Made by a program: the position numbers and the translations under genes
Part shown: in pieces, positions 663 through 18,664 of the stretch
Layout: each line of letters begins with the position of its first letter
Numbering within the stretch: the first letter of the stretch is position 1
UHGV virus genome: UHGV-2198042
Direction: 5' to 3' (one strand)
From: a virus
Length of the DNA stretch: 18,814 nucleotides
The notes under the pieces: model-generated
Told to the model about the DNA's origin: nothing
Database searches by the model: none
Seen by the model: only the letters and a program-made list of their open reading frames with translations

Positions 663-725
663 GTCGATACTTCCGGTGCGCCAGATATTGAATGGCCTAC
701 GCCTCCGGCAGTTCAGGCCAGATGA
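663..725 (+). pseudogene. vestigial tail-fibre-assembly C-terminus in inverted orientation
   Basis: + strand frame reads VDTSGAPDIEWPTPPAVQAR*, matching the conserved Tfa C-terminal motif (..DTS.APDI.WP..P); upstream in frame is not Tfa-like and hits a stop at 480-482. Overlaps the 3' end of the minus-strand tfa. Confidence 0.45.
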
Positions 726-1305
726 CATCCGGCGCGGTGCTGGTATCTGTTGCCGTCACCGCGTCAATGTAATCCAGCGCAGCGTTAAGTCGGGCGGTTT
801 CTGCCTGCGTCAGATTCCGTCCGGCCCGTAATTTCAGCTGAATCAGACTAATGGAAGCCATTGCTGCATCAATCAGTGACTGGCGCTTTACTTCTGCCGC
901 GTCTAGTGCGGCACTATGCTGTGCATCGGCATCCGTCACCCATTTTTGGCCATCCCATTTGTCGTATGGCGTATCAGGTGCTTTGGTGGTGGTTCCTTCC
1001 GGGTATTCTCCCAACTGTGAAACTGCCACAGGTTCTCCAGTTTCCGTGCTGTAAACGGTTTCGCCGCGATGGTCTGCAACATATTCCCAACCGGTCAAAT
1101 CAGCCGTCCGGCAAACAGCAAAGCCGTCCTTTTTGCTGATTGGCGCATCCACGCACGAATTGCCTGGAACACCAACGCCAACGGGAAGATATTCAACAGA
1201 TAAACCGATATATTCACGCGTCACGCCATCGTAATTATAAACAGTGATAACCCCAGATTCCGTGGCGAACCCGTTTTCATCCAGGTTGATTTCTTTTGTG
1301 GTCAT
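697..1305 (-). CDS. tfa: tail fibre assembly protein (Tfa family)
   Basis: 202 aa; C-terminus ...DTSTAPDVIWPELPEA typical of lambda Tfa / Mu gpU-type chaperones; immediately downstream of the tail fibre gene. Confidence 0.8.
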   Translation of the reverse strand: MTTKEINLDENGFATESGVITVYNYDGVTREYIGLSVEYLPVGVGVPGNSCVDAPISKKDGFAVCRTADLTGWEYVADHRGETVYSTETGEPVAVSQLGEYPEGTTTKAPDTPYDKWDGQKWVTDADAQHSAALDAAEVKRQSLIDAAMASISLIQLKLRAGRNLTQAETARLNAALDYIDAVTATDTSTAPDVIWPELPEA

Positions 1306-2189
1306 TATACCGCCCTTACAATGTAGTTGAATGCAATGTTGCGCGGACGGGTTTCTGAGCCGCCCACTTCGACGGTTGGTCGAGTATCGAAATTTACTAC
1401 TTTCCCGCTTGCATCTGCTGAAACAAGGTCATAGCCCCCAGTAGGATCAAAGGCGCTTAACCCCCATGTGCGATCAAAGTTATGGCTGTGGGATTTAAAC
1501 TCATCGTTCTGAGTAGACAGTAAACCGCGGCCATTATCCACACCGCGCCCGTCATCCCAGCCACGAATAAACTCACCACGTAAATCAGGCAATTTATTTG
1601 TCGGATAAGCCTTTGCTAGTTCCGGATATTCTTCAGCAGAAAAAGCCGCACCATTGCATTTCAACCAGCCTGTTGGCGGAGTGGCTGAAGGCCACGGAAC
1701 AGGCACCCCAACAGGTAATGCTGAGCCTTCTCCCAAACCAAGGTATGTGAGAATATCAGCAATAGTATTTTTCCCAATAATGTCACGGCCAACAGAAGTT
1801 AAATCAGTCTGCGCTGCTGTATCATTTCCAGTGAAATATGGGAGTTTATTTGCACCTGTTGCGAGCCCAGCTAATGCCGACAGCGTGGCATCAAGCGCCT
1901 GGAAATCTTTCCCGAAAGCGGTCCCCATTTTGGATATAAACCCGTTCAGGTCTCCATCATCAAGCACATCCAGCCCGCTTTTGTTGGCGGTGTACTGCGC
2001 CAACGCTGCCGCGATAAAGCTGGCTTGCCGAATAGCTTTGTTGACCTGTGCGCTGGATGCTTTACCTGCCGTAAACCCTGAAAGCAGAGCCGGAAGTGCT
2101 TCCCAGTCAGCTTGTGAGGTGACGTTAGCGTTCGGATCAAGCGCGAAAGGTTTAAAGTTGTTTATTGCCATTAGAGTATTGTCCCCCAT
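1305..2189 (-). CDS. tail fibre protein (P2 gpH-like N-region, tail-collar type C-terminus)
   Basis: 294 aa; segment DATLSALAGLATGANKLPYFTGND...VGRDIIGK resembles the P2 gpH conserved region; C-terminal GWLKCNGAAFS...PDLRGEFIRGW resembles the phage tail collar motif. Confidence 0.75.
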   Translation of the reverse strand: MGDNTLMAINNFKPFALDPNANVTSQADWEALPALLSGFTAGKASSAQVNKAIRQASFIAAALAQYTANKSGLDVLDDGDLNGFISKMGTAFGKDFQALDATLSALAGLATGANKLPYFTGNDTAAQTDLTSVGRDIIGKNTIADILTYLGLGEGSALPVGVPVPWPSATPPTGWLKCNGAAFSAEEYPELAKAYPTNKLPDLRGEFIRGWDDGRGVDNGRGLLSTQNDEFKSHSHNFDRTWGLSAFDPTGGYDLVSADASGKVVNFDTRPTVEVGGSETRPRNIAFNYIVRAV

Positions 2190-2851
2190 GCTCCAACATC
2201 GAACCCGCCGATGTATTCGTTATCCATATCAAACCCAAAGAATTTAGAGCCTTCTGACGGTGTTTCTACCGAAGGCGTTTCAACATCACCGGCCCATACG
2301 CCAGCTGATTTAACGGTGAGATAGCCCTGTTTGATAGCGGCGATCAGTTCGAGAGACACATCAGAAATATCAGTTTCAGGGAAAACCCAGACCGAAATCG
2401 TCATGTCCTGGTTGTCGACGATCTGCATCCTCAGGCCTGAGCCTGCGGTAGCAGCGTCAAGGATGGGAGGCAGAGAGTCGTTCCGACCGTCCCAGTTGTT
2501 GATAGCGATTTTCGCTTTCAGAATGATGCGGTACGTCTCATCGCTTAGCGTCGTATAGCCAGAATCAGGATCATATGGCCCTTGCCAGATGCCCTGGTCA
2601 TACCCAAGCCCGTCAGTGTCCAAGCTGAAATAAACTCCGCTAATTGGCTGGCTGACTATGCGACTGCGTCCGATCCACAGACCGAGGATGTCGAGCTGTA
2701 CACCGACAGCAGTATCGATATCGAAGGCTGTTATAAGCCCTGACATAGTGCTGGACACATCAATCAGCGGGCAGGTGCTCAGATCTATATGGTCAAAAAA
2801 GAGTGGCTTGGTAGCGTGGTAGTTAGTGATCAGTTCGGTGTATTTGCTCAT
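2171..2851 (-). CDS. baseplate protein (P2 gpI / Mu gp48-like)
   Basis: 226 aa ORF between the baseplate J-like gene and the tail fibre gene, with overlapping stop/start; assignment by synteny and size. Confidence 0.6.
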   Translation of the reverse strand: MSKYTELITNYHATKPLFFDHIDLSTCPLIDVSSTMSGLITAFDIDTAVGVQLDILGLWIGRSRIVSQPISGVYFSLDTDGLGYDQGIWQGPYDPDSGYTTLSDETYRIILKAKIAINNWDGRNDSLPPILDAATAGSGLRMQIVDNQDMTISVWVFPETDISDVSLELIAAIKQGYLTVKSAGVWAGDVETPSVETPSEGSKFFGFDMDNEYIGGFDVGAWGTIL

Positions 2852-4047
2852 GAGGTCACCGTGATACTGATATTCGCGGTGCTACAGGACGCTGAAGCAT
2901 CATAGGCAATATCAATGTTTGATGCCGATACGCTGCCAGACGACTTACCGATCAGCAGGTCGGTAATATCGTAATAGCGGGCATTCCCGCCGCTCACAAC
3001 GCCGAGGTTTGCCGGGGAATAAATACGGCTCAGCAGAACGTCGTCGCCAATTGTTAGGCCATTTATATAATCGGCAACAGCCTGTTTAATCTGCTCGCCG
3101 ATTTGAGAGGTATAGCCGGTAAAAACTTTCAGGGTAATGGCTACGAAAATTGGCACATCGGTAGAGCGCGAAAAACTGATGACGTGAGGATTACCATAAG
3201 TATCCGGCACTGTGACAGAAGTTTTACCGTAAGTTGCGGTTCCCTGCCCTTTATTCCCCCTGATGGTCTGGGCTATCTCGGTAACATCCCCTCCATCGAC
3301 GATGGCGGAAATAGAGTGTGGCGGCAGCCCGTTGCTGTCGGTTGCCCCAGTATCGTTCTTATATAGTTTGTGACGTGTCACGCCAGCAACATTAGCGATA
3401 GCACCGTCGACACCTTCAAACGGTGTGATCGATGGTAGCGCGACGCTTTGCCCCTGCCGAATGCGCAGCTCTGCGTCGGTTTCGGCTGGTGAACCGACAG
3501 TAGCCGCAACTGGATTGGTTACCGACACCCAACCTCGGGTCGGGGTGTTGATAGTGGTAATAGTCCCGGCCAGCGCCGCAACCGAACCGCTATTCGCACA
3601 TGTGGCCGTCACCAGCACAGTACCATCAACGCCGATCGCTACACTTGCGGGAAAATTCCAGATAATGCCGTTTTTATCCCGTGCGGAGCCATTCGTGATA
3701 GTCGTGCCTGCCGTACCGGTTAACAGAAGGTCAGCAGTAGAGTTTGTCGCTACTTTTCGCGTGATCCCGTTAATTTTCACATTGCTGCTAAGCGCTGCGG
3801 CCTGCGCTGTCGTCGGTGAAAAAGAGTTGTAGATCCCGATAGCGGTGTTGTTAGCGTCATGCACGGCAAGAGCCACCAGCGCGACCATCTGCCCGTCTTT
3901 GCTGTCTGGTTCGAGGTAGGCATCACTACCGTAAATCTGCCTGAAATAGCTGGTCAGTGTATCTAGGATTGTCTGGTAATCAGGCGCACTAATCCCCTGG
4001 GCGGTTACCGTTGCCGATAGCCCCAGCGTGTCGAGGTTCAAAGCCAT
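2848..4047 (-). CDS. baseplate J-like protein (P2 gpJ / Mu gp47-like)
   Basis: 399 aa; size, composition and synteny (after the gp25/W-like gene, before the gpI-like gene) fit baseplate J-family wedge proteins. Confidence 0.7.
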   Translation of the reverse strand: MALNLDTLGLSATVTAQGISAPDYQTILDTLTSYFRQIYGSDAYLEPDSKDGQMVALVALAVHDANNTAIGIYNSFSPTTAQAAALSSNVKINGITRKVATNSTADLLLTGTAGTTITNGSARDKNGIIWNFPASVAIGVDGTVLVTATCANSGSVAALAGTITTINTPTRGWVSVTNPVAATVGSPAETDAELRIRQGQSVALPSITPFEGVDGAIANVAGVTRHKLYKNDTGATDSNGLPPHSISAIVDGGDVTEIAQTIRGNKGQGTATYGKTSVTVPDTYGNPHVISFSRSTDVPIFVAITLKVFTGYTSQIGEQIKQAVADYINGLTIGDDVLLSRIYSPANLGVVSGGNARYYDITDLLIGKSSGSVSASNIDIAYDASASCSTANISITVTS

Positions 4048-4401
4048 TTATGCCTCGCTTGTTACAGTCGTCTGGCCGTAGATTGTGTCAATGGAGGAAG
4101 TGAAGGTGACGCGACGGCTGGTGCCGTCATAATTGGTATCGAAGGAAAGAATCGACAGAACGCCCGGTGTATCCTGTATGCGTTCGCGTATAGCCAGGAT
4201 GTAGACATCTGATCGCTGCTTCCCAAGCACTGACTGAACATACGGCGTGCCTTCCGTCAGATCGAGAAACCACTGACCGCGCCACAGCTCGAAACGGGTT
4301 TTTACGGCCTGGGCGACACATTCCGGACTGTCGATAAGGAAAGTATCGTCACCCTGGCCGAAAGTGTAATCGCCTTCAGTATCTTCGCGACGGTATCGCA
4401 T
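4048..4401 (-). CDS. small baseplate protein (gpW/gp25 or Mu gp46-like)
   Basis: 117 aa ORF tightly coupled between the spike and J-like genes. Confidence 0.5.
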   Translation of the reverse strand: MRYRREDTEGDYTFGQGDDTFLIDSPECVAQAVKTRFELWRGQWFLDLTEGTPYVQSVLGKQRSDVYILAIRERIQDTPGVLSILSFDTNYDGTSRRVTFTSSIDTIYGQTTVTSEA

Positions 4402-5141
4402 TATTGCGGCCCTCCGGTAGTTCCCCCGCCAGTCTGTACTCCGCCATGTTTATGCGTGGCGACACTGATACCAGAAGCTGTTACGTCATTCGTTACCGTC
4501 ACCGGCCCAAGCATCGTCGCAGTACCGCCGCTTTCGCCCATTCCCTGAGACAAGTTGCCATTAATCGTTACGTTGCCGTTCAGCGTGATAGTCGGGGATG
4601 TGATTGTCGTTCCACCTTCAGCCGTAGCTGTAAGCTGGCCCGGTGTTTTAATGGTGATGTTATGTCCTGCGGCGACTTCTACAAACGCCGCACCATCATC
4701 GGTTCGCAGCTGCGCGGCGCTGGTACTGATACCGCTGATTTTCCGTGCTTGCGACTGTGGGCCAACGATGGCGAACGCATCAGATAAGTCATGCTGGCGC
4801 GGGTCGACGGTCTCCTGCACGCCGCCGCTCTGCCACCAGAAATCGATGCAACGGTCGGCAAAGAGCAGCAGGCACTCGTCGCCTTCTTTAACCGGAAAAG
4901 TCAGCGTACAACCGCCGCCACGCGGGAAGATAACCGGCACATCCACCAGCGGTTTTAATTCGGTGGAGCCATCGCCAACGATACCGCGAAGCGCTACCTC
5001 TACCGTGCAGGTAACAGTGTCAGGATCGAACGACTGAATGATGCCGGGCATCGCTACGCGCATCTGGGTAGACACCGAATCGGCAATGGCCTGCGCGGTC
5101 TGCTGCTCACCGCCGATCTGTGATTGAGTTGGAATTGGCAT
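4401..5141 (-). CDS. baseplate spike/hub protein (P2 gpV / Mu gp45-like)
   Basis: 246 aa; N-terminal region ...PLVDVPVIFPRGGGCTLTFPVKEGDECLLLF resembles the gpV OB-fold; Gly/Thr-rich C-terminus; G-rich RBS before the ATG. Confidence 0.7.
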   Translation of the reverse strand: MPIPTQSQIGGEQQTAQAIADSVSTQMRVAMPGIIQSFDPDTVTCTVEVALRGIVGDGSTELKPLVDVPVIFPRGGGCTLTFPVKEGDECLLLFADRCIDFWWQSGGVQETVDPRQHDLSDAFAIVGPQSQARKISGISTSAAQLRTDDGAAFVEVAAGHNITIKTPGQLTATAEGGTTITSPTITLNGNVTINGNLSQGMGESGGTATMLGPVTVTNDVTASGISVATHKHGGVQTGGGTTGGPQ

Positions 5142-5152
5142 AAAACCCCCAT

Positions 5153-5180
5153 AAAAAAACCAGCCGAAGCTGGTTTGGTA
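5153..5180 (-). terminator. intrinsic terminator-like hairpin (minus strand) upstream of spike gene
   Basis: Minus strand reads aaaccagc-TTCG-gctggttt followed by ttttat; 8-bp perfect stem with a UUCG tetraloop and a U-run. Confidence 0.45.
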
Positions 5181-5242
5181 TCAATTATCTCTTAGTAACT
5201 AAGCTACATCAGTGTGAAGTAAGGCTTTTCCGCTGCAATGGC

Positions 5243-5259
5243 ACACATTCACAATGTGT
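5243..5259. promoter_or_regulatory. 7-bp inverted repeat (acacatt-cac-aatgtgt), operator-like
   Basis: Perfect palindrome in the intergenic region about 105 bp upstream of the + strand small ORF; -35-like hexamers (ttgcaa, ttgaaa) nearby. Confidence 0.25.
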
Positions 5260-5363
5260 ATTAGGATATGTTTGCAACAAGTAAGCATTGAAAATCAATT
5301 TCAGCCATGAAGCCGCCATAGAGTGGACCTGCACCATCGCATTATTGACTACAGGAGTAACAA

Positions 5364-5654
5364 ATGGGATTTAGATTTCGTAAAAGAATCCGGATTGCGC
5401 CCGGACTCGCGATCAACATTAGTAAAAGCGGAGTAAGCACTTCAATTGGTGGTAAAGGTTCCACCATTAACATCGGGAAAAAAGGCGTAAAGATGACAAA
5501 TGGCCTTCCCGGCACGGGGCTGTCGCATACCACTAACCTTTACTCTCCCGGGAAATCGACAGAAAAAAAACAACTTACTCATAAGCAAAAAATAATTAGA
5601 AACATCCTGTTCGTAATTATTGTGTTTATTATAATTAAAGCTCAATATTTTTGA
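5364..5654 (+). CDS. DUF4236-like small protein with C-terminal transmembrane helix
   Basis: 96 aa; N-terminus MGFRFRKRIRIAPGLAINISKSGVSTSIGGKG... resembles DUF4236 proteins from memory; C-terminal ILFVIIVFIII hydrophobic stretch; RBS aggagt 6 nt before ATG; antisense to all neighbouring genes. Confidence 0.55.
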   Translation: MGFRFRKRIRIAPGLAINISKSGVSTSIGGKGSTINIGKKGVKMTNGLPGTGLSHTTNLYSPGKSTEKKQLTHKQKIIRNILFVIIVFIIIKAQYF

Positions 5655-5658
5655 CGCA

Positions 5659-5690
5659 TGCCCGCCTATCTGGCGGGCTATTTTACTTTT
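5659..5690 (+). terminator. intrinsic terminator of the small + strand ORF
   Basis: gcccgcc-tatct-ggcgggc 7-bp GC stem followed by tattttactttt, starting 5 nt after the ORF stop; overlaps the stop codon of the convergent 296-aa gene. Confidence 0.55.
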
Positions 5691-6568
5691 CGGCAGTCGT
5701 ATGTTGCATACTGGCGCGGCGCGTCTATGCTGGCCTGCAACCACTGTGCGTTGAGAATAGCTTTTCCGTTGCGCTTGATGTACTCAAGCCCAACCCAGCG
5801 GCCGGGTTGATTAGTGGCAGCCATCCACTCCATCTTGATGTTATCCGGTTCCCCTTTGGTGCTACCACCAGAGCCGATTGGGCTAATTTTTTGCGTCTCT
5901 GGTTTTGCGCCATTAATTCTGGCCCAACCATCAGCAGAAGACAGATCAATCGTATAAGGACCACAGACTGTTTTGTAATTCACGCCAAGCTTTTCGTTAC
6001 TGTGAACATTACTACTTTTCTCGTAATCAGCCTTGGCTACGTCGTTCATTTTTTGATAGATGGCAGGTTGCTTCAGCGATAACTCATTTAGCTGTTTTAC
6101 AAAATTTTCTCGTGAAACCTCTGCAAGCCCCATGGGTTTTCTATCAATGATATAATCATCATAAATCTTTAATACAACAGCCGAAGAAGAAAGTTTCTTA
6201 GCTAAATCATTTACAAAATTGAGATAATTTAGCTGAGAATTATCTCTTACATCGATAGCCCTAACTCCACCTGTGCCGTACTCATGATATGCAGCATAAA
6301 AAGCTGGTATATTCTCCGGCTTTTTATTGATTGCCTTAATCAACCCGTCAGGACCACAGATCTCGCCACTCCAGTCAATTAGTGACTTCCCTTTAGATTT
6401 CCATGTCTGACAATCATCTGTCGATAAAATTACTATCGGCTGCCATCCTGGACGTCTTTTGTACTCAGCGTTCTGCGCGGAATTAAAGCCTGCACTCGCG
6501 CCCCCGGATAAGAGCAACCCGGAAAGAAAAAGTGCGCTATATCGAATTCCGTTCTTATTTGTACCCAC
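5678..6568 (-). CDS. secreted/periplasmic protein of unknown function (signal peptide)
   Basis: 296 aa; GTG start 7 nt after an AGGAGG RBS and directly after the upstream gene stop; N-terminus MGTNKNGIRYSALFLSGLLLSGGASA/GF is signal-peptide-like; AT-rich relative to flanking tail genes; shares a 17-residue motif with the tape-measure protein. Confidence 0.65.
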   Translation of the reverse strand: MGTNKNGIRYSALFLSGLLLSGGASAGFNSAQNAEYKRRPGWQPIVILSTDDCQTWKSKGKSLIDWSGEICGPDGLIKAINKKPENIPAFYAAYHEYGTGGVRAIDVRDNSQLNYLNFVNDLAKKLSSSAVVLKIYDDYIIDRKPMGLAEVSRENFVKQLNELSLKQPAIYQKMNDVAKADYEKSSNVHSNEKLGVNYKTVCGPYTIDLSSADGWARINGAKPETQKISPIGSGGSTKGEPDNIKMEWMAATNQPGRWVGLEYIKRNGKAILNAQWLQASIDAPRQYATYDCRKVK

Positions 6569-7636
6569 TTAATTTCCTCCTGAGCGAGCTATAGTCGACT
6601 GGCTAATCAGGTCACGAGCCCCACGCGCAAAACACATCAAATCCATGTACCACGCCTGACCTCTGGTGTCACCAGTATAATCGATAGCTTTGACGATATA
6701 AACGCCATCTGTCGCAATGCTGGCAGCCTGTGACGTTGTGCCGGTCAGTACGCGGTTGCCGTTCTCTTCTGTTTCGGTGATGCGACCGGGCGACTGTGCT
6801 ATTTCGCTATTACCGAGCGCGGCGCGGTACACCGAAGCCTGATCGAGCTGGATAAGACCATTAATACGGATGTTTGGGTTTATCAGGCACCGCACGTTTA
6901 CTCCGCCGCCCATCGTTTGTTGCGGCATACCGATCAGGCCAGTATCGGCATTCAACACAATGGCTTCGTGAATATATTTATCCTCCGGCACCATCTGGAC
7001 CTGACCATCCACCAGCTGCCATGTCGCTTTGCACTGCGCAGCAATATTATCCATCACGTTACGGGTGGATGAATAAATCGCACGGCCACGAGGAAACACG
7101 GTATCAGGAAAGTCACCGGTAATGCCCTGCGTCACGCCGAACGCGTTGAAATCCTGCATAGTCGCCCGGTGCAGGTCCGCAACGGTATAACCAGCGGCAA
7201 GCGTGGTGATGGTAGTCGCGTAGAGGAACGCTTCGTGGTTACTGATGGCCTGAATCAGCACCCAGGAATCGGTGATGTTGTCCTTCCCGGTGACGGTGAA
7301 GCGAATATCACCGTCAAATATCAGGCCGTAGTTCTGACCGTTCACCTGCCCTACCTGGTCTGGTGAAATCTCCCGGGCGACACCAACCTGGCTCGCATCA
7401 ACATCCGGCGCAATACCGTCATACCCGGCAATGATGCGAATTTTTGCAAACTCCTGCCCCAGTATCTTGTTCGTGGTATCGGTCGAAAGGTTGTAAATTT
7501 TCACGTTCGCCACGCGTGGCCAGCGTGTGTCTGCCCACTCGATCTGGAACGTGACCTTAAAGTCAGACAGGGAAACGCCCTGCCCGTTCTGGTCCAACAG
7601 TTGCAGCTCAAAATGGCGCATCCAGTTAAGAGACAT
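6569..7636 (-). CDS. tail/baseplate protein (Mu gpP/gp44-like position)
   Basis: 355 aa ORF in the tail module between the tape-measure region and the spike; assignment by synteny only. Confidence 0.5.
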   Translation of the reverse strand: MSLNWMRHFELQLLDQNGQGVSLSDFKVTFQIEWADTRWPRVANVKIYNLSTDTTNKILGQEFAKIRIIAGYDGIAPDVDASQVGVAREISPDQVGQVNGQNYGLIFDGDIRFTVTGKDNITDSWVLIQAISNHEAFLYATTITTLAAGYTVADLHRATMQDFNAFGVTQGITGDFPDTVFPRGRAIYSSTRNVMDNIAAQCKATWQLVDGQVQMVPEDKYIHEAIVLNADTGLIGMPQQTMGGGVNVRCLINPNIRINGLIQLDQASVYRAALGNSEIAQSPGRITETEENGNRVLTGTTSQAASIATDGVYIVKAIDYTGDTRGQAWYMDLMCFARGARDLISQSTIARSGGN

Positions 7637-7638
7637 TT

Positions 7639-7944
7639 CTACTCCTGTACGAAAATGAGGTGGCTGTATGTGCCGAGGTTGGTTTTGGTGGGCTCGTCTG
7701 GTGCGCCCTTATCGGTCGCCACCACCAGCGCGCCATCAATGCCAAGCTGTGGATATTGTCGTAAAAGGTTTACGCCGGTCAGTAGAGGTACGCCAGAGAG
7801 AAGCGCGGCACCGCCGCTATCCATCACGTCCATAATCCAGCCAGCCGCATCACGTCAGATGATCCTGAGTGTATACGTGGTATTGCCCAGCAAAACGCGG
7901 AACTGCTGATTGTCAGGAGAAAGCGGTATTTCGTTAAACTGCAT
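7639..7944 (-). pseudogene. small tail/baseplate gene split by a frameshift
   Basis: Two contiguous reading frames, 7855-7944 (MQFNEIPLSPDNQQFRVLLGNTTYTLRII*) and 7639-7833 (64 aa), overlap at about 7834-7860; together about 100 codons filling the gap between flanking tail genes. Confidence 0.4.
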
Positions 7945-7945
7945 A

Positions 7946-8548
7946 TCATCCCCCGAATGCTGATGTAACGCTTCCGCCCAGCTGGCTCAGCAAGGATTCG
8001 TTTGGCGGTGTAGTGGATTTCATCCCGGAATTCTGCACCGCCGATGTGCTGACGCCATCCTGCATATCTGATTTATCTGCAACGCTAACGCTCTGCGTCT
8101 GCGACATGATCACTTCACGCAGGGTAAGCGTGCAGTTCAGCACGTTCTCGCTGGTTTTATCCGTTGTCACCTCGATGGCTCGCACCAGCATATTGCTGTA
8201 AACCCGCTTTCCGGTCACTACATCGAACGGCACCCGAGAGGACTGGAGATCCAGTAGTTGCTGATAGGTCTCTTTCGGGCTAAGTCCGGCGCTGAGGCCG
8301 ATTGACGATGTATCAATGAAGTCCAGCAACGAACCGCCACCTGCGAAGCCGCATTCCATCGTGACTTCGCTGGGGCGCTTATACGCATGATCGGCGATGA
8401 AACCCGACGCGCTATTCGTTGTTGGCTTCTCCACCGGGTGCTCAGTAATTTCGAGCGCATCAGAATGCTTTTCGGAAACGACCACGCTGGGGATCAGCAG
8501 GCCAATTCGCCGGGATTGCTGGCGAAAAATCGCTGATAAAATATCCAT
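7946..8548 (-). CDS. tail protein of unknown function
   Basis: 200 aa ORF immediately downstream of the tape-measure gene; family not recognised. Confidence 0.45.
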   Translation of the reverse strand: MDILSAIFRQQSRRIGLLIPSVVVSEKHSDALEITEHPVEKPTTNSASGFIADHAYKRPSEVTMECGFAGGGSLLDFIDTSSIGLSAGLSPKETYQQLLDLQSSRVPFDVVTGKRVYSNMLVRAIEVTTDKTSENVLNCTLTLREVIMSQTQSVSVADKSDMQDGVSTSAVQNSGMKSTTPPNESLLSQLGGSVTSAFGG

Positions 8549-10185
8549 TATCTCGGTCCTGCGGGGAGTTGCTGGGTTAACTGTGAATTCACGCCCTTTT
8601 GACGGTCAACAGTCAAACGGGCAGCCTCGCGCGGATCGGAAACGCCGTGGATGTTAATGTTCGTTTCCTGCTGAATCACCGGGGCGCTGGTGGGCATATT
8701 GCTCATCACTTTCGGAATGTAGTTGCGCGTTTCCTGCGGCATTAGCCCCATTCCATAACGCTTAACATTCCCGATCCCCCAGTTATATGATGCCAGTGCT
8801 TTGCTAAGGTCTCCGCCGTTCTGCCGCAACAGCTGGCTGAGGTACTTAGCGGCTGCCTGAGCTGACTTTTCCGGGTCGAATACATCATTCCCACGCAGGC
8901 CCATGTCGCGCGCCGTGCCATCCATAAACTGAAACAGTCCTTTCGCGCCTGCGCCGGATATGGCGAACTGGTTACCACCCGACTCGGTGATCGCCACGCT
9001 TTTCAACAGGCCAGCTGGCAGCTGATAAAGCGACTCCAGTTTATTGAACATTGGCCCCATCCAGTCGAGCAATACCTTGCCCTGGGCCGTCGCCTGAGGT
9101 CGCTTAACCGACTGCGCTCGCTGCTCCGGCTCCAGTCCCATCTCCTGAATTTTTCGCTGGATTTGCTCATCAGTGAAAAAGTCTTTGCCGGGATTTTCCT
9201 TTCTCAGCGCCTCATATGCCTGCTGCCTTTCAGGTACGATATTGCTGCCTATACCGCCAATCGACGCCATTTCTTCACTGGTGGTCGGCGTATTGTTGGC
9301 AGGAATGAACATAAGCAACCATGGATTCTTGATTGCCAGCTGTGCGATCCCCTGCGCCAGCTTACCCAGCCCACCAATAGAGCCGCCAATTGCCTTACCA
9401 AGCCCCATAAATCCGGCGACAAGTCGCCCGATGCCAGTGAGCATGGAGACCAGCTTCGCACCAGCCAGAAAGCCAAACAGGATGGTGAGCGTATTTTTCC
9501 AGCCGCCGAGGTTGTCCTTGAGCTCCAGAAACTTATCGCGCAGCCACTTGAACACCTTCTTTGCCTGCTCAATTTCTGGCTGCCATTTGGACCAGTCAAT
9601 CAGGCTTTTACCGCCCTCTTTCCACGTCTGGTAATCGTCGTACAGCAATCCGATCGCCAGAATCAGTGTGGTGATAATTCCAATCGGGGATTTCAGGAAC
9701 GCAGAATTAAGCAGACGCCATGCGACCAGTAGAGCACCGAATATTTTCAGCAGATTTTTACTGCCATCGTCAAGACGCTTCCACCAGTCGATGACAGAGC
9801 CAGCGCCCTGTATCAGCCGCCACGCCATTCTCGTGAATGCGTTCGCAAGCCAGATCACGCCTTTAATAACTCTGGTCAGCGTCTCTTCAATCTTCGGGAA
9901 ATTGTCGAGGATGCGCCGCCGCAGGCTGTCCAGCGAACCAGCCAGGCCACCAGCGAGGTTTGAGCCGATCTTGTCCCGCATGATGCCGAACAGCGACGTA
10001 AGCCCGCGCATGGACGTCATGAATTTGTTGGACTGAACAGCCGCTTTATCAGCGTTGAACCCTGTCTTTTGCAGCATCGACTGGTAATCGGCGGTAAAGC
10101 CATTCATGCCGCGCCGCATCGCCATCAGCGTGTTTTCATCGATGCCAAGCATCTGCGCGTATTGTTTCGCGCGGTAATACGGCAT
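8548..10185 (-). CDS. tail tape-measure-like protein with C-terminal lytic transglycosylase (SLT) domain
   Basis: 545 aa; several Gly/Ala-rich hydrophobic segments; C-terminal ESGGNQFAISGAGAKGLFQFMDGTA...ASYNWG resembles SLT-family transglycosylase motifs; position before the baseplate genes. Confidence 0.65.
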   Translation of the reverse strand: MPYYRAKQYAQMLGIDENTLMAMRRGMNGFTADYQSMLQKTGFNADKAAVQSNKFMTSMRGLTSLFGIMRDKIGSNLAGGLAGSLDSLRRRILDNFPKIEETLTRVIKGVIWLANAFTRMAWRLIQGAGSVIDWWKRLDDGSKNLLKIFGALLVAWRLLNSAFLKSPIGIITTLILAIGLLYDDYQTWKEGGKSLIDWSKWQPEIEQAKKVFKWLRDKFLELKDNLGGWKNTLTILFGFLAGAKLVSMLTGIGRLVAGFMGLGKAIGGSIGGLGKLAQGIAQLAIKNPWLLMFIPANNTPTTSEEMASIGGIGSNIVPERQQAYEALRKENPGKDFFTDEQIQRKIQEMGLEPEQRAQSVKRPQATAQGKVLLDWMGPMFNKLESLYQLPAGLLKSVAITESGGNQFAISGAGAKGLFQFMDGTARDMGLRGNDVFDPEKSAQAAAKYLSQLLRQNGGDLSKALASYNWGIGNVKRYGMGLMPQETRNYIPKVMSNMPTSAPVIQQETNINIHGVSDPREAARLTVDRQKGVNSQLTQQLPAGPR

Positions 10186-10291
10186 GTTGTTGAGCTTTTG
10201 CCCAACCCGCCCTGATAGCTGCCTGTGTGGCGTTTAAATCTTTCAGGTACTCACGGGCAAACAGCTCTTGTTTGTCGGTGAGCTTTGCCAT
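10136..10291 (-). pseudogene. terminase small subunit N-terminal stub
   Basis: 51-codon frame MAKLTDKQELFAREYLKDLNATQAAIRAGW... matches the conserved terS N-terminal HTH motif, then loses similarity and stops; overlaps the tape-measure start in another frame; GGAG RBS upstream. Confidence 0.5.
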
Positions 10292-10531
10292 TGTTGGCTC
10301 CGTTTATCCGTTAAAAGGGATATCAGTTAAGTTATCCCGTGCAGGGTATAAGCCATTGTCGAGACCACTCATTGAATGGCCTCTGCAATAACCGATGTCT
10401 TTCCATCAGCCCGCCACCACAAAGAATCTTTTTTGCCATAAGGCTGGAGGTTCATCTTTCAGTGGCTGCCAGTGTTATTTCCCCACTTACTGGCTTGGGT
10501 TGCTTCGTGGTACTGCCGTAACTGGTGGTGC

Positions 10532-10551
10532 ACAGATTTAGTTAAATCTGT
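10532..10551. promoter_or_regulatory. perfect 9-bp-arm palindrome acagattta-gt-taaatctgt
   Basis: Seen directly in the roughly 350-bp noncoding region between the 85-aa ORF and the terS stub. Confidence 0.25.
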
Positions 10552-10643
10552 TCTCGCCTGAACTATCTTTTACATACCCGGATTGTGGGGATGTAAATCA
10601 CGGTTTCATTATCAAGCCCACCCGTAGATGGGCTTTGTAATGG

Positions 10644-10901
10644 CTACTTCGCTTTTGCTTCCGCTCGCTTACGCCGGCGCTCTTCTTTCCTCTCGGCTTT
10701 TGCCATGTCCATGAATGCCTGCATGATCGAGTTCCGCATCATGTAGCTAACAAAGTGATGATTGACACAGCCGTTGAGGCGCAGCTGCTCGCCAAACTCA
10801 TCCACCGAGGCCAATGCTTCCCTCATGCCCTTCTCGCCTTTCATGAACTCTGAGAAGTCGCGCCCCGCTCTGGAGGCGCATTCAATGACACGATCACTCA
10901 T
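10644..10901 (-). CDS. hypothetical protein with basic C-terminal tail
   Basis: 85 aa ORF whose start overlaps the KilA-N gene stop (ATGA); C-terminus AKAERKEERRRKRAEAKAK; hairpin after the stop. Confidence 0.45.
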   Translation of the reverse strand: MSDRVIECASRAGRDFSEFMKGEKGMREALASVDEFGEQLRLNGCVNHHFVSYMMRNSIMQAFMDMAKAERKEERRRKRAEAKAK

Positions 10902-11395
10902 CCCGGAAGCCCGGGGATCGTAATCTGCAGCTGGTTAGCCAGGGAGTTAATCTCAGCGACCAACACTGGCTTCGTATAGCGCCATGCTGCCAGCCCTTGT
11001 CCGCAGAAGCTCGCCATGTCTTTCTTCTGGTCAAACTCATGACATTTCATGTTGAGCTGCGCACTTAAGCTGTTGCGATGCTGAAGTTCTCCGGTGAAGT
11101 AGTCATCGAGGACTTTATAGGCCGCGTACTTGAACCCGGGGTTTAACCAAGCCGCATAATCGTAAGCAACAAACTTCCCGCCATATGTTCCACCGTGTAC
11201 ACCGCGCTCAGTAAAAACCACAGATTCGTGGTTTTTCTCCAGCTCGGCTAAGAACTCTTTGGTCTGCTTGTTTCGCAGGTAGTGGTAAGGCGATTCAGAT
11301 TCACTTTTACCACTAGCTTTCCACATATCAGTGAGGCAGATCATGCCATCTTCACCGATACGAATTGGTTGATTGAAGAGGGTTAATGATTTCAT
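10898..11395 (-). CDS. KilA-N domain protein
   Basis: 165 aa; N-terminal LTLFNQPIRIGEDGMICLTDMWKASGK...YHYLRNKQTKEFLAELE fits the KilA-N DNA-binding fold pattern from memory. Confidence 0.55.
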   Translation of the reverse strand: MKSLTLFNQPIRIGEDGMICLTDMWKASGKSESESPYHYLRNKQTKEFLAELEKNHESVVFTERGVHGGTYGGKFVAYDYAAWLNPGFKYAAYKVLDDYFTGELQHRNSLSAQLNMKCHEFDQKKDMASFCGQGLAAWRYTKPVLVAEINSLANQLQITIPGLPG

Positions 11396-11509
11396 AGCGT
11401 GTACCTACTCTTTGAAATGAACCTTTGCCGCACAGGAAACCAGCCCACCGAGGCTCGCCAGCACTAACTGGTATCCTCAAAGGCCCATTCCAAAGGGGCA
11501 GGTTCGGTG

Positions 11510-11566
11510 TAAAAAACATGCGTTGCGGTACGCATTTATTGCAAAAAGCCCCGCATCGCGAGGCTC
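11510..11566 (-). terminator. tandem intrinsic terminators downstream of Rz
   Basis: Minus strand: agcctcgc-gat-gcggggct + ttttt, then atgcgt-accgca-acgcat + gtttttt. Confidence 0.5.
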
Positions 11567-11596
11567 ATTAAATGGACTTTGTGATTTGCAAAAAAA

Positions 11597-12064
11597 TTAT
11601 TTCAGGCATTGCGTCCTGATGTATTCCTGCAGGTAGTTAACCTGCGCGGTTATCTTGTCGATTCCACTTCGTAGACGGTAATAATTGAGTTCAGCATCTG
11701 CTGTAAGTCTTGGGCTTTCTCCATCGCCCATGCTGCTGGCTCCGGTCGTTGACTTTGCACAGGTGGCGGCGACTTGCAGGCGCTTACGGCCAGCAATGAC
11801 ATCGCTATGCAGACGCTCAATGGTTTCTTTCGCATCAGCCAGTTCTCCGGTGTATTTGGCATCCAGTGCAGCGACATCACGCTGGCGGGTCTGCATGTCT
11901 TTAATGGTGGCGGTCGCCAGGAGGAGTTTCTCAGTGGCCTTATCGCGCTGGTCTCTGTAAGTGATGGCGTTGTCGCGGTAGTGGTTCACGAAGAAAGCCA
12001 GTGCGCCGATTAACGCCAGCACCAGCAACTGCAGCCAGTAACGCTTAACCAGTGCGCTAATCAT
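11597..12064 (-). CDS. Rz: i-spanin Rz
   Basis: 155 aa; N-terminal TM helix then ...[18 protein letters not shown]...[20 protein letters not shown] closely resembles lambda Rz; start overlaps R stop. Confidence 0.85.
11650..11835 (-). CDS. Rz1: o-spanin Rz1 (embedded in Rz, +1 frame)
   Basis: Internal start [20 protein letters not shown] with a lipobox (LAVSAC) and Pro-rich mature region, fully nested in Rz as in lambda. Confidence 0.7.
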
Positions 12065-12510
12065 GACAGGAACAGAGCTCGCTCTGCCTTGCGGCGATTC
12101 GTGAGCCCCGGCATCACCTTTCCGCCTGATTTATTCCAGCGCAGAAATTCATCTGCCGCGCCTTTTATATCGCCAGCATTCAGCTTTTTCAGCAGTGTAG
12201 ATGTGGAAAGAGCACGCGACCCAACGTTGTAAGCGAACGACACCAGTGCGTCGAACTGGCCTTGTGTCAGCTTCACCCTGACAACTTTCAGCACGTCATT
12301 CTCATAACCAACAAGCCCTGTTTTCAGAAGCCTGTCAGCGGTTTGCTGGTCGATAGTCATACCGCGCTTTACTGGCTTTCCGTCAACCGGATGGGTCCAG
12401 CCATAGCCGATGGTCCACGGCGCATCTCCCGTTCCGGGGTCGGGGTAAGCAGTCAGCCGACAACCTTCAAATTTTTTTATCAGAGCAATTCCGTCAGGAC
12501 TGGTTTGCAT
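12061..12510 (-). CDS. R: endolysin, T4/P22-type lysozyme (GH24)
   Basis: From internal Met [16 protein letters not shown]... about 149 aa; ...[14 protein letters not shown]...[11 protein letters not shown] matches the P22 gp19-type lysozyme from memory; the ORF-track N-terminal extension overlaps the holin gene. Confidence 0.85.
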
Positions 12511-12817
12511 CGTCAACTCCCGCCTTTTTTGCTGCAAGTTTTTTAATAAGATTGCCGATCGAATCGGTGCCGATGTATCCAATAAAGACGCTGGCTATGT
12601 AGGCGAGGTTGCTGCTCAGGCCGATAAAGTCCAGAAGGTCACGAACGAACCAGGCAATCATCGCGCACATCAGCGCATCAATTAGCGTTTTTGTTACCGC
12701 GCCGCCGTTATAGCGACCACGCAGATACGCCATGATAAAAGCCAGCATTGCACCAATACCCTGCTCCTTGGCGGCAAGTAGCGCAGCGATGAAATCTTGT
12801 TTGTATGGCATTTTCAT
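12494..12817 (-). CDS. S: class I holin, lambda S-like (dual-start MKM)
   Basis: [39 protein letters not shown]... is near-identical in pattern to lambda S; GGAGG RBS; the ORF-track upstream start (12826) is probably not used. Confidence 0.85.
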
Positions 12818-13025
12818 AGGCCTCACCTCCGATTTTCCGGATGGTGCTGTGTGTGTGTTTGAAAAGGGTCAGGCTTCACGGGCTGGATTTATCAACAAAG
12901 CACGTAGCGGATGATTCCCGTGAGCCTGAAATTGATGAATATGTCTGAAATAACTAGACCATTAGTAAAACAACTCGATAAATGTGGTTAAATGAGACTA
13001 CGTTCTCACAACTTAATTAGTACCA

Positions 13026-13196: not shown

Positions 13197-13633
13197 GTTG
13201 CCAGTTTTCAATGAAGATAATGCGGGCAAAAAAAGCCTGCTCGGACGAACAGGCATGAAAAATAACAATACCGTCAAGGAGGTGGCGCCGGGTGCCTCCC
13301 GGTGGAACAGCCCCAGCCGACTAGTTCCGCGCAAACAAACCTGGACAAAAAAGTTTGACTGGACGCCCCGCCGCATAGGGGGATTCACCACGAACCAAAA
13401 GATAAAATCATCCGGTGACCGGGGCAATATCTAACCGGAACTTTTCAGAATCACTTATTGTTTCCTGGAGAGTACATGAGCGTTGGTGAATTCACGTGAT
13501 GCTTTTGGATGAGCGCTGAACCCAAAGGTCAGTATTTTCACACAGCAATTTTGCAAAAAGCAGCGCCCATTCAAAACCAGGTCGCTTTCCAGTCACTCCG
13601 GGGAACCCATCATCGCAGACTGGAAAGCTTTTA

Positions 13634-14133: not shown

Positions 14134-14208
14134 TGGCGGGATAGCGTGGACTCGAACCACGATAAGAAGGTTAACAGCCTTCCGTAATGACCTTTATACG
14201 ACTGACCC
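14134..14208 (-). tRNA. tRNA-like element, anticodon GUU (Asn-like), probably degenerate
   Basis: 75 nt on minus strand: acceptor gggtcag, D-arm with A14 and GG, anticodon stem gaagg/ccttc with loop cuGUUaa, T-arm cgtgg-TTCGAGT-ccacg, 3' ctatccc-g-CCA; acceptor stem has 2 central mismatches. Confidence 0.35.
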
Positions 14209-16503: not shown

Positions 16504-16524
16504 CTTGTTTTCCTCGCACGTTCT

Positions 16525-17559
16525 CTAATCGACCAGAATCATGCCAACACATCCTTTTTCTCGCTTGATTCGACGACTTTCGCTGACGATTTGAGCCAGA
16601 GATAATCCCGGCGTGTCGTCGATGTAAAGCAGGTCGATTTCACTCAAGCGATTGGCTGTTTCGATCGCCCTGTTGAAGTCACCATCGTAATCACCCTGAT
16701 AGCCGTCATCAGCGTCATTTGTCGCCGGAATGTAAAAAATATTCGGGTTAACACCTGACTTCTGTCCTACCAGCTTTTCCAGTATCTGGTCGCCTGGCAT
16801 TTCAAGACTGAACATCAGAGCGGGCTTTTTCTCATGCACTGCGCAGTTGATTGCCATCTGGCTGTATAGCGTCGTTTTCCCCATCTTAGGGCGAGCGCCA
16901 ATGACGAACAGAGAGCCTTTCACCAGACCTTTCGGTGACAGCATCCTGTCCAGAGATGGGATCCCTGTGCTCATTCCTCGTTGTTCGCCTGACGGGTCAA
17001 ATCGCTTCTCAAGGTCGCTAACCCAGTCTTCCATGACCTCACCAAATGAGCGAAGGCCGCGACGCGATCCGGTTTTTGCATGGTCTGTCAGTTGCGTGAA
17101 AATCGCCTGAATAGCTTCGTACTTCTGCGTTGCAGTCATTCCGTTGCGGGAATAGAGCAATTCCGTCGCTTCAGTCATGCGGTTGATGGCGTAGCGTTCC
17201 ATTGCGGTTTCACGAACCTGCATTGCATAGGCAACGATGTTTGCTGCGCTTGGCGTGTTCTTTGCGATCTCAGCGATATAAGCAAAACCGCCAACAGACG
17301 CCGTTAACGATTTACGCTCCAGTTCATCGAAAAGCGTCAGGCCATCTACTGGCTTTTGCTCCCGGTGCATTCTGGTTATTTCTTCGAAAAGGATTTTGTG
17401 TGGTCGGCTGTAAAATGAATCAGGCTTCAGCATCGCCAGAACTTTCTGGACGCGCTCACTGCTGTCATCATCCAGAAGCAATCCACCAATCACCGCCTGC
17501 TCTGCCTCGATGCTATGGGGCGGCGCATAAAAATTATCGGTCATCGTGTTCACCCTCAC
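16525..17559 (-). pseudogene. DnaB-like replicative helicase (P22 gene 12 type), 3'-truncated at Walker B
   Basis: 344 aa; Walker A GARPKMGKT present; ends ...GCVGMILVD* exactly where the DnaB Walker B motif (hhhhDYLQ) should continue; about 100 C-terminal residues missing. Confidence 0.7.
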
Positions 17560-18115
17560 GAACTTTCAGGTAGGTATTATCGTTAAGCAGGAAATCAAAT
17601 CCCTTTTTGTGCCAGACGGTTCCGCGTTGATGGTTTGGGCGCTCTTCGAACATCCATCGGCAATTTTCGCCAACGTAGCTCAAATAATTTCTCCAGTCCT
17701 GCATCGTGAACCCATGCCCGTCAAGTTGGCGTGTTATTACTCCGGCTTTGCGCCAGAACGTTCGGATCTGGTTTTTACGCTTGTCATTCAGTGCGCGGAT
17801 TCTTGGCGCTTCAGGAAGGATTTCGTGGTAAGCATCGACAACATCCTGACAGCTGACGGAAGGTTTTTTCTTGTCAGACTTTTTGTCTGCTGTGGCACTC
17901 TCTAATACGTCAGTATTAGAGATATTATTTATATTATTGTTTATGGACAACTGTTGGACAACCGTTGGACAATCTCCGCTGAGAGCCGCACCATTACTGG
18001 TGTTTGCGTTGGACAACCGTTGGACAACCGTTGGACAATTTTTTGACTGAAAATCGTCATATTTAACGATTGTAAACAGGCTAAATTTCTTCCCCATCGC
18101 GCAAATATTAAGCAT
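17534..18115 (-). CDS. replication initiator (O-like, iteron-containing); start codon uncertain
   Basis: Overlaps helicase start as in O-P / gene 18-12 arrangements; contains the iteron cluster in its 5' part (repeated CPTVVQRLS); the ORF-track N-terminal 37 codons overlap the int-homologous segment, so an internal Met (about 18115 or 18097) is more likely. Confidence 0.5.
   Translation of the reverse strand: MLNICAMGKKFSLFTIVKYDDFQSKNCPTVVQRLSNANTSNGAALSGDCPTVVQQLSINNNINNISNTDVLESATADKKSDKKKPSVSCQDVVDAYHEILPEAPRIRALNDKRKNQIRTFWRKAGVITRQLDGHGFTMQDWRNYLSYVGENCRWMFEERPNHQRGTVWHKKGFDFLLNDNTYLKVREGEHDDR
17944..18038. repeat. replication origin iterons: six copies of an 11-bp unit NNGTTGGACAA in two triplets, flanked by an AT-rich tract
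   Basis: Seen directly: atggacaa/ctgttggacaa/ccgttggacaa and gcgttggacaa/ccgttggacaa/ccgttggacaa; AT-rich tattagagatattatttatattattgtttat adjacent (about 17900-17943). Confidence 0.7.
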
Positions 18116-18217
18116 CCCTTTCGACTCAAAAGTCCGTAATAAGCTCCGAACTTTGTTGTCGGGGATGAATGTTTCTCTGACCAGCGACGGGCGTCCAGTT
18201 GTCCGATAGCTCCCTGT

Positions 18218-18664
18218 ACCGGGCAACGAGTCGGTGATTTATGCGAAATGAAGTGGTCTGATATCGTAGATGGATATCTTTATGTCGAGCAAAGCAAAAC
18301 GGGCGTAAAAATTGCCATCCCTACAACATTGCATGTTGATGCTCTCGGGATATCAATGAAGGAAACACTTGATAAATGCAAAGAGATTCTTGGCGGAGAA
18401 ACCATAATTGCATCTACTCGTCGAGAACCGCTTTCATCCGGCACAGTATCAAGGTATTTTATGCGCGCACGAAAAGCATCAGGTCTTTCCTTCGAAGGGG
18501 ATCCGCCTACCTTTCACGAGTTGCGCAGTTTGTCTGCAAGACTCTATGAGAAGCAGATAAGCGATAAGTTTGCTCAACATCTTCTCGGGCATAAGTCGGA
18601 CACCATGGCATCACAGTATCGTGATGACAGAGGCAGGGAGTGGGACAAAATTGAAATCAAATAA
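18218..18664 (+). pseudogene. int: integrase C-terminal fragment (lambda Int residues about 209-356)
   Basis: Translation ...TGQRVGDLCEMKWSDIVDGYLYVEQSKTGVKIAIPT...HELRSLSARLYEKQISDKFAQHLLGHKSDTMASQYRDDRGREWDKIEIK* is near-identical to the lambda Int C-terminus from memory; upstream of about 18218 the frame is unrelated and hits a stop at 18140-18142. Confidence 0.85.

Follow-up and report, generated by a model that had tools for sequence, protein, structure and literature searches.

The terminase stub

The locus considered here presents a 51-codon open reading frame that begins like a terminase small-subunit (terS) gene and overlaps, in another frame, the start of a tape-measure gene. The question is how these two genes came to lie side by side, and whether the arrangement is a scar, a join between different phages, or a functional unit in its own right. 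Nearly all genes in the window, i.e., the whole stretch of 18,814 nucleotides that was analysed, are on the minus strand. We conclude, with a probability of roughly 0.93, that the arrangement is the scar of a deletion that brought terS codon 28/29 up against tape-measure codon 142 with loss of about 11.6 kb, as part of the decay of a defective E. coli prophage.

The chimeric 51-codon ORF (MAKLTDKQELFAREYLKDLNATQAAIRAGWAKAQQHAVLPRETIRADAWHR; positions 10136–10291, minus strand) was delimited from the ORF list and by alignment to intact 184-aa terS proteins. Its terS-derived segment (10207–10291, minus strand), defined by matches to Pantoea phage PA-1, E. coli FJ_Ec_21 and Pfam, consists of the start codon and the first 28 terS codons. 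Codon 29 lies across the junction, and codons 30–51 (22 codons) are tape-measure DNA in the wrong frame, where a chance stop closes the reading frame. Alignment to the 184-aa proteins fails after the residues AAIRAG and ends at residue 29.

Within the terS-derived part, the family assignment is clear. Residues 4–34 match positions 1–31 of the 141 positions of the Pfam profile Terminase_2 (PF03592), scoring 44.2 bits where the cutoff is 26.1 (E = 3.8e-11), and the corresponding PHROG match is PHROG 51, terminase small subunit. At the nucleotide level, the first 86–87 nt of the terS gene in PA-1 are 100% identical to the start of the stub (window 10206–10292; megablast against phages). The segment 10204–10528/10536, which extends from the terS part of the stub into the upstream spacer, is 97–98% identical to E. 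coli S51 and FJ_Ec_21 (approximately 98% for FJ_Ec_21 within the 10204–10528 alignment), and the matching stretch in these two genomes includes the start of a 555-nt terS gene.

The stub thus contains the N-terminal helix-turn-helix region at the start of the Terminase_2 profile, but the full-length domain, including the oligomerisation core and the C-terminal part, is missing; an intact relative covers profile positions 1–139. Adjacent to the stub there is no gene for the large terminase subunit (TerL), and TerL of FJ_Ec_21 has no tblastn match in the window. The stub is therefore a fragment of a Terminase_2 gene, and functionally no member of the family. Because it would retain only part of the DNA-binding helix-turn-helix, followed by 22 nonsense residues, the 51-aa product is most probably non-functional. 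The native Shine-Dalgarno motif GGAG, as read directly from the sequence, is kept 6 nt upstream of the start codon at approximately 10298–10301.

The tape-measure remnant

The stub overlaps the adjacent ORF by 50 nt, with the two frames offset by one nucleotide. This second gene is the remnant of a tape-measure/SLT gene (8548–10206, minus strand), of which codons 142–693 out of 693 are identified by protein alignment, tblastn, PHROG and Pfam. The tape-measure frame is open through the junction, and since it offers no ATG, GTG or TTG ahead of the ATG at 10185, the ORF finder begins a 545-codon ORF at this position (8548–10185, minus strand; ORF list). The predicted 545-aa protein corresponds to residues 149–693 of the 693-aa E. 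coli tape-measure/SLT protein P0003 in a gap-free alignment with 541 of 545 residues identical (99%), and the FJ_Ec_21 protein matches the window at query residues 142–693 (tblastn). The loss accordingly consists of 141 deleted codons, and 7 further codons are kept as DNA upstream of the first ATG. In the 90%-identity cluster of the 545-aa ORF (58 members), nearly all proteins listed have 693 residues, and the small number of shorter proteins represent partial or fragmentary records.

The C-terminal SLT lytic-transglycosylase domain (PF01464) has been retained at residues 379–479 of the 545-aa ORF (E = 2.1e-25). As for PHROG 2276, "tail length tape measure protein", the 545-aa ORF covers positions 195–658 of 673, whereas the intact 693-aa protein covers 19–658. 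Of the 218 positions of the N-terminal PHROG 12506, only 151–217 are matched. The part that has been lost contains the region of a weak PhageMin_Tail signal (residues ~37–158) and nearly all of PHROG 12506. Judged from these alignments, the 545-aa ORF is N-terminally truncated, and represents a shortened SLT-bearing tape measure of the kind found in SEN34, phiES15 and yong1.

Directly downstream of the 545-aa ORF is a Dit-like baseplate gene, the stop and start of the two genes abutting at 8548. The upstream neighbours in relatives, i.e., the genes for a chaperone (Phage_TAC_15) and DUF6889, are deleted in the window. The internal ATG at 10185 sits within the stub ORF, and direct reading of the sequence reveals no Shine-Dalgarno motif before it. 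We expect the tape-measure remnant to be poorly expressed, if at all, and presumably without function.

The preliminary description of this DNA had recognised a terS N-terminus in the 51-codon frame overlapping the tape-measure start, and the Pfam Terminase_2 match, PHROG 51 and the identity to PA-1 confirm this. Its view of the stub as terS applies in part: the N-terminus is genuine, but only codons 1–28 derive from terS. It had also suggested that the tape-measure ORF might be N-terminally truncated, which agrees with the gap-free match to residues 149–693 of 693, and had proposed to align the stub and the tape-measure N-terminus with intact relatives. Such alignment places the breakpoint at 10204–10206 and shows that the 545-aa ORF is not full length. 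Homologues of the 545-aa protein do not share its N-terminus, and intact relatives do carry head genes at this position, opposite to what the preliminary description would have taken as evidence against a deletion.

The deletion junction

The deletion junction (10204–10206, no strand), with a microhomology of 1–3 nt, was located by three-way alignments of the window, intact tape-measure DNA and intact terS DNA, together with BLAST boundaries at 10206 and 10204. On the tape-measure side, an intact gene annotated as "SLT domain-containing protein" in E. coli 873.10 is 100% identical to window 9900–10206, and then diverges (megablast). The tape-measure homology stops at 10206, and the terS homology starts at 10206 when measured against PA-1, or at 10204 against S51 and FJ_Ec_21. 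The trinucleotide AAC is common to the terS genes of FJ_Ec_21 and S51, while only the C is shared with PA-1. Because the parent is deduced from relatives that are 89–98% identical, the values given for the microhomology (1 or 3 nt) and for the size of the deletion should be read as proxies for the exact ones.

No IS remnant or long repeat is present near the junction, and no repeat exceeds the chance level of 13–14-mers. An IS element or a long repeat as cause of the deletion was rejected on these grounds, the microhomology being only 1–3 nt. A programmed frameshift fusing the two reading frames, of which that of the tape measure is +1 to that of the stub, also appears very unlikely, as no recognised slippery motif was seen.

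The missing block in intact relatives

Three E. coli genomes show what would be expected between the two breakpoints. The distance is 11,632 bp in S51 and 11,610 bp in FJ_Ec_21, both of which have a Terminase_2-type terS, and 12,677 bp in 873.10, where terS is of the DUF2280 type. In all three, the gene order starts with terS, TerL, portal (DUF1073), head morphogenesis, DUF2213, cement protein and major capsid (DUF2184), continues with connector and neck genes, sheath (DUF3383), tube (DUF3277), tail assembly chaperone and DUF6889, and ends with the tape-measure/SLT gene and baseplate genes. None of the 14 proteins from DUF6889 to TerL of FJ_Ec_21 has a tblastn match anywhere in the window.

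The FJ_Ec_21 prophage (NZ_CP143627.1, approximately 3083.7–3125.5 kb) is full length, carries xis and int, occupies the same site as the window (ybhB/ybhC), and is collinear with the window on both sides of the junction. The order of tail-fibre assembly, baseplate, tape measure, terS, KilA-N region, lysis, Q, nin, replication and int is alike in the two elements, with 89–98% identity over the shared parts. Unlike the window, FJ_Ec_21 still has the 11.6 kb that link terS with the beginning of the tape-measure gene, a nin/DnaB segment, and an 11.8-kb immunity/recombination/xis/int segment, and its plug gene is intact. Neither intermediate forms nor a strain with exactly this prophage in undeleted form were found. 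The collinearity with FJ_Ec_21 and the 14 missing proteins bear out the earlier suggestion that the head and tail-shaft module has been deleted, and the absent functions named there are the right ones, but the size of the deletion, put at roughly 15 kb in the preliminary description, has to be revised to 11.6 kb with the best comparator (11.6 and 12.7 kb with the two others).

The same module is present in cultured myoviruses, namely Salmonella phage SEN34, Cronobacter phage phiES15, Hafnia phage yong1 and Pantoea phage PA-1. These phages are complete and particle-forming, whereas the window has only the baseplate/fibre end and the terS stub. The tape-measure/SLT proteins of SEN34 and yong1 are 67–71% identical over the aligned 79–80% of the 693-aa query. 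In PA-1, the Terminase_2-type terS that is identical to the start of the stub is followed by TerL, portal and head genes.

The different small terminase in 873.10, DUF2280, which precedes the same tail module, could be taken to mean that the junction arose by illegitimate recombination between two phage genomes, one contributing a lambdoid late region with terS and the other a separate tail cluster, in which case the head module would never have been present. Lambdoid phages are mosaics, and homology to HK620/HK97-type phages ends at the terS start codon, a typical module boundary. However, gene order and orientation on both flanks of the junction match those of single full-length prophages (S51 and FJ_Ec_21) that have the same terS and tail module, and the FJ_Ec_21 prophage is inserted in the same attB. 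The join is furthermore located inside two genes and out of frame, unlike the joins of viable mosaics. A simple deletion requires one event, but recombination between phages would require more, and the shared order and orientation would then have to recur by chance. We consider such an origin very improbable.

Surviving genes and further lesions

Upstream of the deletion, the flank is intact. A spacer of 351 bp without a long ORF (10293–10643, minus strand) precedes terS, and is common to many lambdoid and P22-like phages. It has no Rfam match to a known RNA, and a consensus scan for promoters and terminators between the lysis region and the remnant found none on the minus strand. The late-region genes that follow upstream (10644–12826, minus strand), assigned by Pfam, gene calls and tblastn against FJ_Ec_21, encode an hkbL-like 85-aa protein, KilA-N, Rz, lysozyme and holin, and are all open reading frames.

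On the other side of the scar, the surviving baseplate/fibre module (697–8548, minus strand) was mapped by Pfam, gene calls and per-gene tblastn, and is collinear with FJ_Ec_21 at 89% identity. It consists of genes for a Dit-like protein, plug (a pseudogene), hub, a 296-aa ORF, spike (gpV-like), a gpW-like protein, baseplate J, DUF2612, tail fibre and fibre assembly. The baseplate plug gene (Pam3_gp18-like; 7642–7944, minus strand) has a TGG-to-TGA nonsense codon at 7855–7857, as established by alignment to the intact 101-aa genes of 873.10 and S51. The nonsense codon is found in all contigs long enough to show it, and the gene is called as a 61-aa fragment on contigs L006, L009 and L010. Apart from the plug gene, all surviving genes are open.

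Two additional deletions were identified by comparison with FJ_Ec_21 and by tblastn. The second deletion junction (16515–16526, no strand) corresponds to a loss of approximately 1.4 kb relative to FJ_Ec_21, which removed the C-terminal part of DnaB together with ninB, ninD and ninE, and fused the 5′ three-quarters of dnaB to ninF. The third, whose position is approximate (18150–18220, no strand), amounts to about 11.8 kb relative to FJ_Ec_21; an O-like N-terminal part, cII, cro, cI, recombination genes, xis and int codons 1–179 have been lost, and a C-terminal fragment of int remains (18155–18664, plus strand). In view of these two deletions and the plug nonsense codon, the element as a whole is decaying.

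With so many genes still open, the arrangement at the junction might in principle be functional. The 51-aa product could act as a DNA-binding protein, the 545-aa SLT protein could be a domesticated murein hydrolase, or the baseplate could belong to a tailocin- or satellite-like device. In favour of this, the ribosome-binding site of the stub is still good, the 545 codons form an uninterrupted frame with 99% identity to intact alleles, the lysis cassette and the majority of the baseplate genes are likewise open, and the element recurs in several samples. Against a role for the stub, 22 of its 51 codons are out-of-frame tape-measure DNA, and only 31 of the 141 Terminase_2 profile positions are left. 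As for the 545-aa protein, the first ATG of the remnant has no Shine-Dalgarno motif and lies inside the stub ORF. That its frame is still open can be ascribed to a recent deletion, given the 99% identity to intact alleles, and the 99.4–100% identity among junction contigs likewise points to recent common descent and not to long retention. A tail-like particle could not be assembled, as the sheath, tube and chaperone are absent and the plug gene is interrupted. An R-type tailocin or contractile injection system was rejected for the same reasons, i.e., lack of sheath (DUF3383), tube (DUF3277) and chaperone, a truncated tape measure, and the nonsense codon in the plug gene. Taken together, a functional arrangement is scarcely credible.

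Host site and recurrence of the junction

The window is 100% identical to part of the ENA contig ERZ28810828 NODE_832, which comes from a metagenome assembly and continues into host DNA on either side. The gene ybhC lies beside the int fragment, and ybhB/bioA beside the end of the tail-fibre genes, and in the ybhB/bioA flank the identity to E. coli reaches approximately 99% in the best hits. The ybhB/ybhC interval is the integration site of lambda (lambda attB). With host genes at a phage attachment site on both sides (ybhC; ybhB/bioA), and with essential modules lost (three deletions of 11.6, 1.4 and 11.8 kb, int truncated, and xis, cI and cro all absent), the window is essentially a whole defective (cryptic) prophage of the classic lambdoid type at lambda attB.

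The 545-aa protein and the stub were located on metagenome and Logan contigs by exact protein look-up. The junction 28-mer GAGCTTTTGCCCAACCCGCCCTGATAGC is identical in four contigs of other samples (ERZ27262673, SRR30861120, SRR31716339 and ERZ773116; labelled L007, L009, L010 and L011), which derive from ENA and Logan samples and different assembly tools, and the junction contigs are 99.4–100% identical across the compared region. A megablast search with window 9900–10500 against 5,426 complete E. coli genomes returned no junction-spanning record, and the exact 28-mer has 0 matches in the GTDB species-representative genomes. Although the window stems from a metagenome assembly and the junction is absent from all complete E. 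coli genomes and GTDB species representatives searched, a chimera created during assembly can safely be dismissed, since the identical junction recurs in four other contigs from different ENA/Logan samples and assembly tools, and no repeat able to mislead an assembler is present at the junction. The recurrence in other samples means that the junction is real and is inherited within a circulating E. coli lineage, and is no assembly artefact.

Proposed history of the element

The ancestor would have been a temperate phage of approximately 42 kb, in which the early, nin, Q and lysis region was lambdoid and was followed by packaging, head and contractile-tail genes of the SEN34/phiES15 kind. One illegitimate recombination event inside the integrated prophage, using the 1–3 nt of microhomology, most probably then connected terS codon 28/29 with tape-measure codon 142; loss in one step within the prophage seems more plausible to us than loss in several. 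The approximately 11.6 kb removed comprise the remainder of terS, TerL, portal, head morphogenesis, scaffold, cement, major capsid, head–tail connector/neck, sheath, tube, tail assembly chaperone, DUF6889 and tape-measure codons 1–141. The two frames meet with a shift of one nucleotide, so that the start codon and ribosome-binding site kept from terS would drive a 51-codon nonsense ORF, and the tape-measure remnant would be left with an internal ATG, seven codons in and inside the stub ORF, as its first start, with no Shine-Dalgarno motif of its own. Through these losses, the prophage of about 42 kb would have shrunk to the approximately 18.8 kb that now lie between ybhB and ybhC. With TerL, portal and capsid absent, no packaging is possible, and with sheath, tube, chaperone and plug missing or broken, neither is a tail-like particle.

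Deletion-driven degeneration of "grounded" prophages is established (PMC6379469). The kind of event described here is thus already known, and the case is one of ordinary prophage decay. In public records the stub is named "Terminase small subunit" and the contig is placed under Caudoviricetes sp., which is misleading for what is a non-viable, chromosomally fixed remnant, and viral diversity is overestimated wherever virome catalogues include such contigs among the phages. The locus offers a nucleotide-resolved example of prophage decay through microhomology-mediated deletion, with a full-length comparator at the same attachment site, and might be used in teaching or for benchmarking of prophage-completeness tools. 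Beyond annotation, its importance is small.

That the remnant is kept by selection in its E. coli lineage, rather than merely awaiting loss, strikes us as improbable. If it were so, the host might benefit from the truncated SLT fragment, or from the lysis cassette, which is intact, and the morons embedded in the baseplate region, for instance through remodelling of the cell wall, release of vesicles or exclusion of related phages, and the terS/tape-measure deletion would have been a step that made the element safe to keep. The open genes and the 99% identity of the tape-measure remnant fit a recent deletion, yet are compatible with selection on some of the remaining genes. The divergence of the surviving tail genes from the available relatives is mostly older than the deletion.

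Cryptic lambdoid prophages of E. coli K-12 have often preserved Q, the lysis cassette and nin genes, along with pieces of int and tail genes. By description, the element resembles DLP12, Rac, Qin and e14 of this strain, which are likewise lambdoid prophages grounded by multiple internal deletions, but it differs from them in integration site and in morphogenesis module.

Further deletions and a nonsense mutation

Apart from the 11.6-kb deletion scar that joins the start of terS to the middle of the tape-measure gene, two further deletion junctions are present in the window. At the second junction (positions 16515–16526), dnaB is joined to ninF, such that dnaB lacks its 3′ quarter and ninE, ninD, and ninB are missing. 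At the third junction (approximately 18150–18220), the O-like gene has lost its 5′ end and runs into a lambda-type integrase gene of which the C-terminal half remains. Genes missing here are cII, cro, cI, xis, and those for recombination. Within the O-like gene remnant (approximately 17940–18040), the iteron-like motif TTGGACAA(C/T) occurs in six copies, presumably marking where replication of the ancestral phage originated. Damage is also found in the baseplate plug gene (Pam3_gp18-like; 7642–7944, minus strand), which in relatives comprises 101 codons, and where codon 30 has changed from TGG to TGA, giving a stop at 7855–7857. The plug gene is called with the same split on the other contigs that carry the terS/tape-measure scar.

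The spacer upstream of terS

The hkbL-like gene and terS are separated by a spacer of 351 bp (10293–10643), the sense strand of which holds no ORF longer than 35 codons. The sequence is retained at 90–99% identity in about 210 phage records, including HK620, HK97, Sf6, and P22-like phages, as well as in over 2,500 genomes of E. coli. Homology ends at the start codon of the packaging gene, irrespective of which packaging gene follows. The predicted RNA folding is much stronger than for shuffled sequence (z = −6.2 for the sense strand and −4.1 for the antisense strand), and a comparison of the spacer with Rfam returned no match. Because the part at approximately 10333–10519 is 92% identical to the interior of P22 ORF201/rha, the spacer may consist of gene debris and not encode a functional RNA.

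Other genes and RNAs

The interval that separates the genes for the Q antiterminator and the holin holds two RNA genes, both on the minus strand. One is an STnc100 sRNA (13224–13416), whose score of 71.7 bits exceeds the gathering score, and the other is a tRNA-Asn (GTT; 14134–14208). The baseplate module includes a 296-residue ORF (5678–6568, minus strand) with a signal-peptide-like N-terminus. Its match to PHROG 3443, of unknown function, is confined to the last 100 residues, which also match a 116-residue gene product encoded at the same position in E. coli 873.10, whereas the remainder does not. The N-terminal 200 residues are extra, and contain the motif DDCQTWKSKGKSLIDWSGE, which is similar to the motif DDYQTWKEGGKSLIDWSKW of the tape measure. 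A counterpart with 82% identity exists in the full-length prophage of E. coli FJ_Ec_21, but is annotated there as a partial pseudogene. The only plus-strand gene within the tail module encodes a DUF4236 protein (5364–5654) that is 100% identical to the FJ_Ec_21 copy, compared with 87–99% for the adjoining tail genes. This gene looks like a moron.

Public records

The truncated tape measure and the terS stub have been deposited as DAE77787.1 and DAE77790.1 under “MAG TPA: Caudoviricetes sp.”, the stub with the name “Terminase small subunit”. These records amount to a virus catalogue entry for a non-viable chromosomal remnant.
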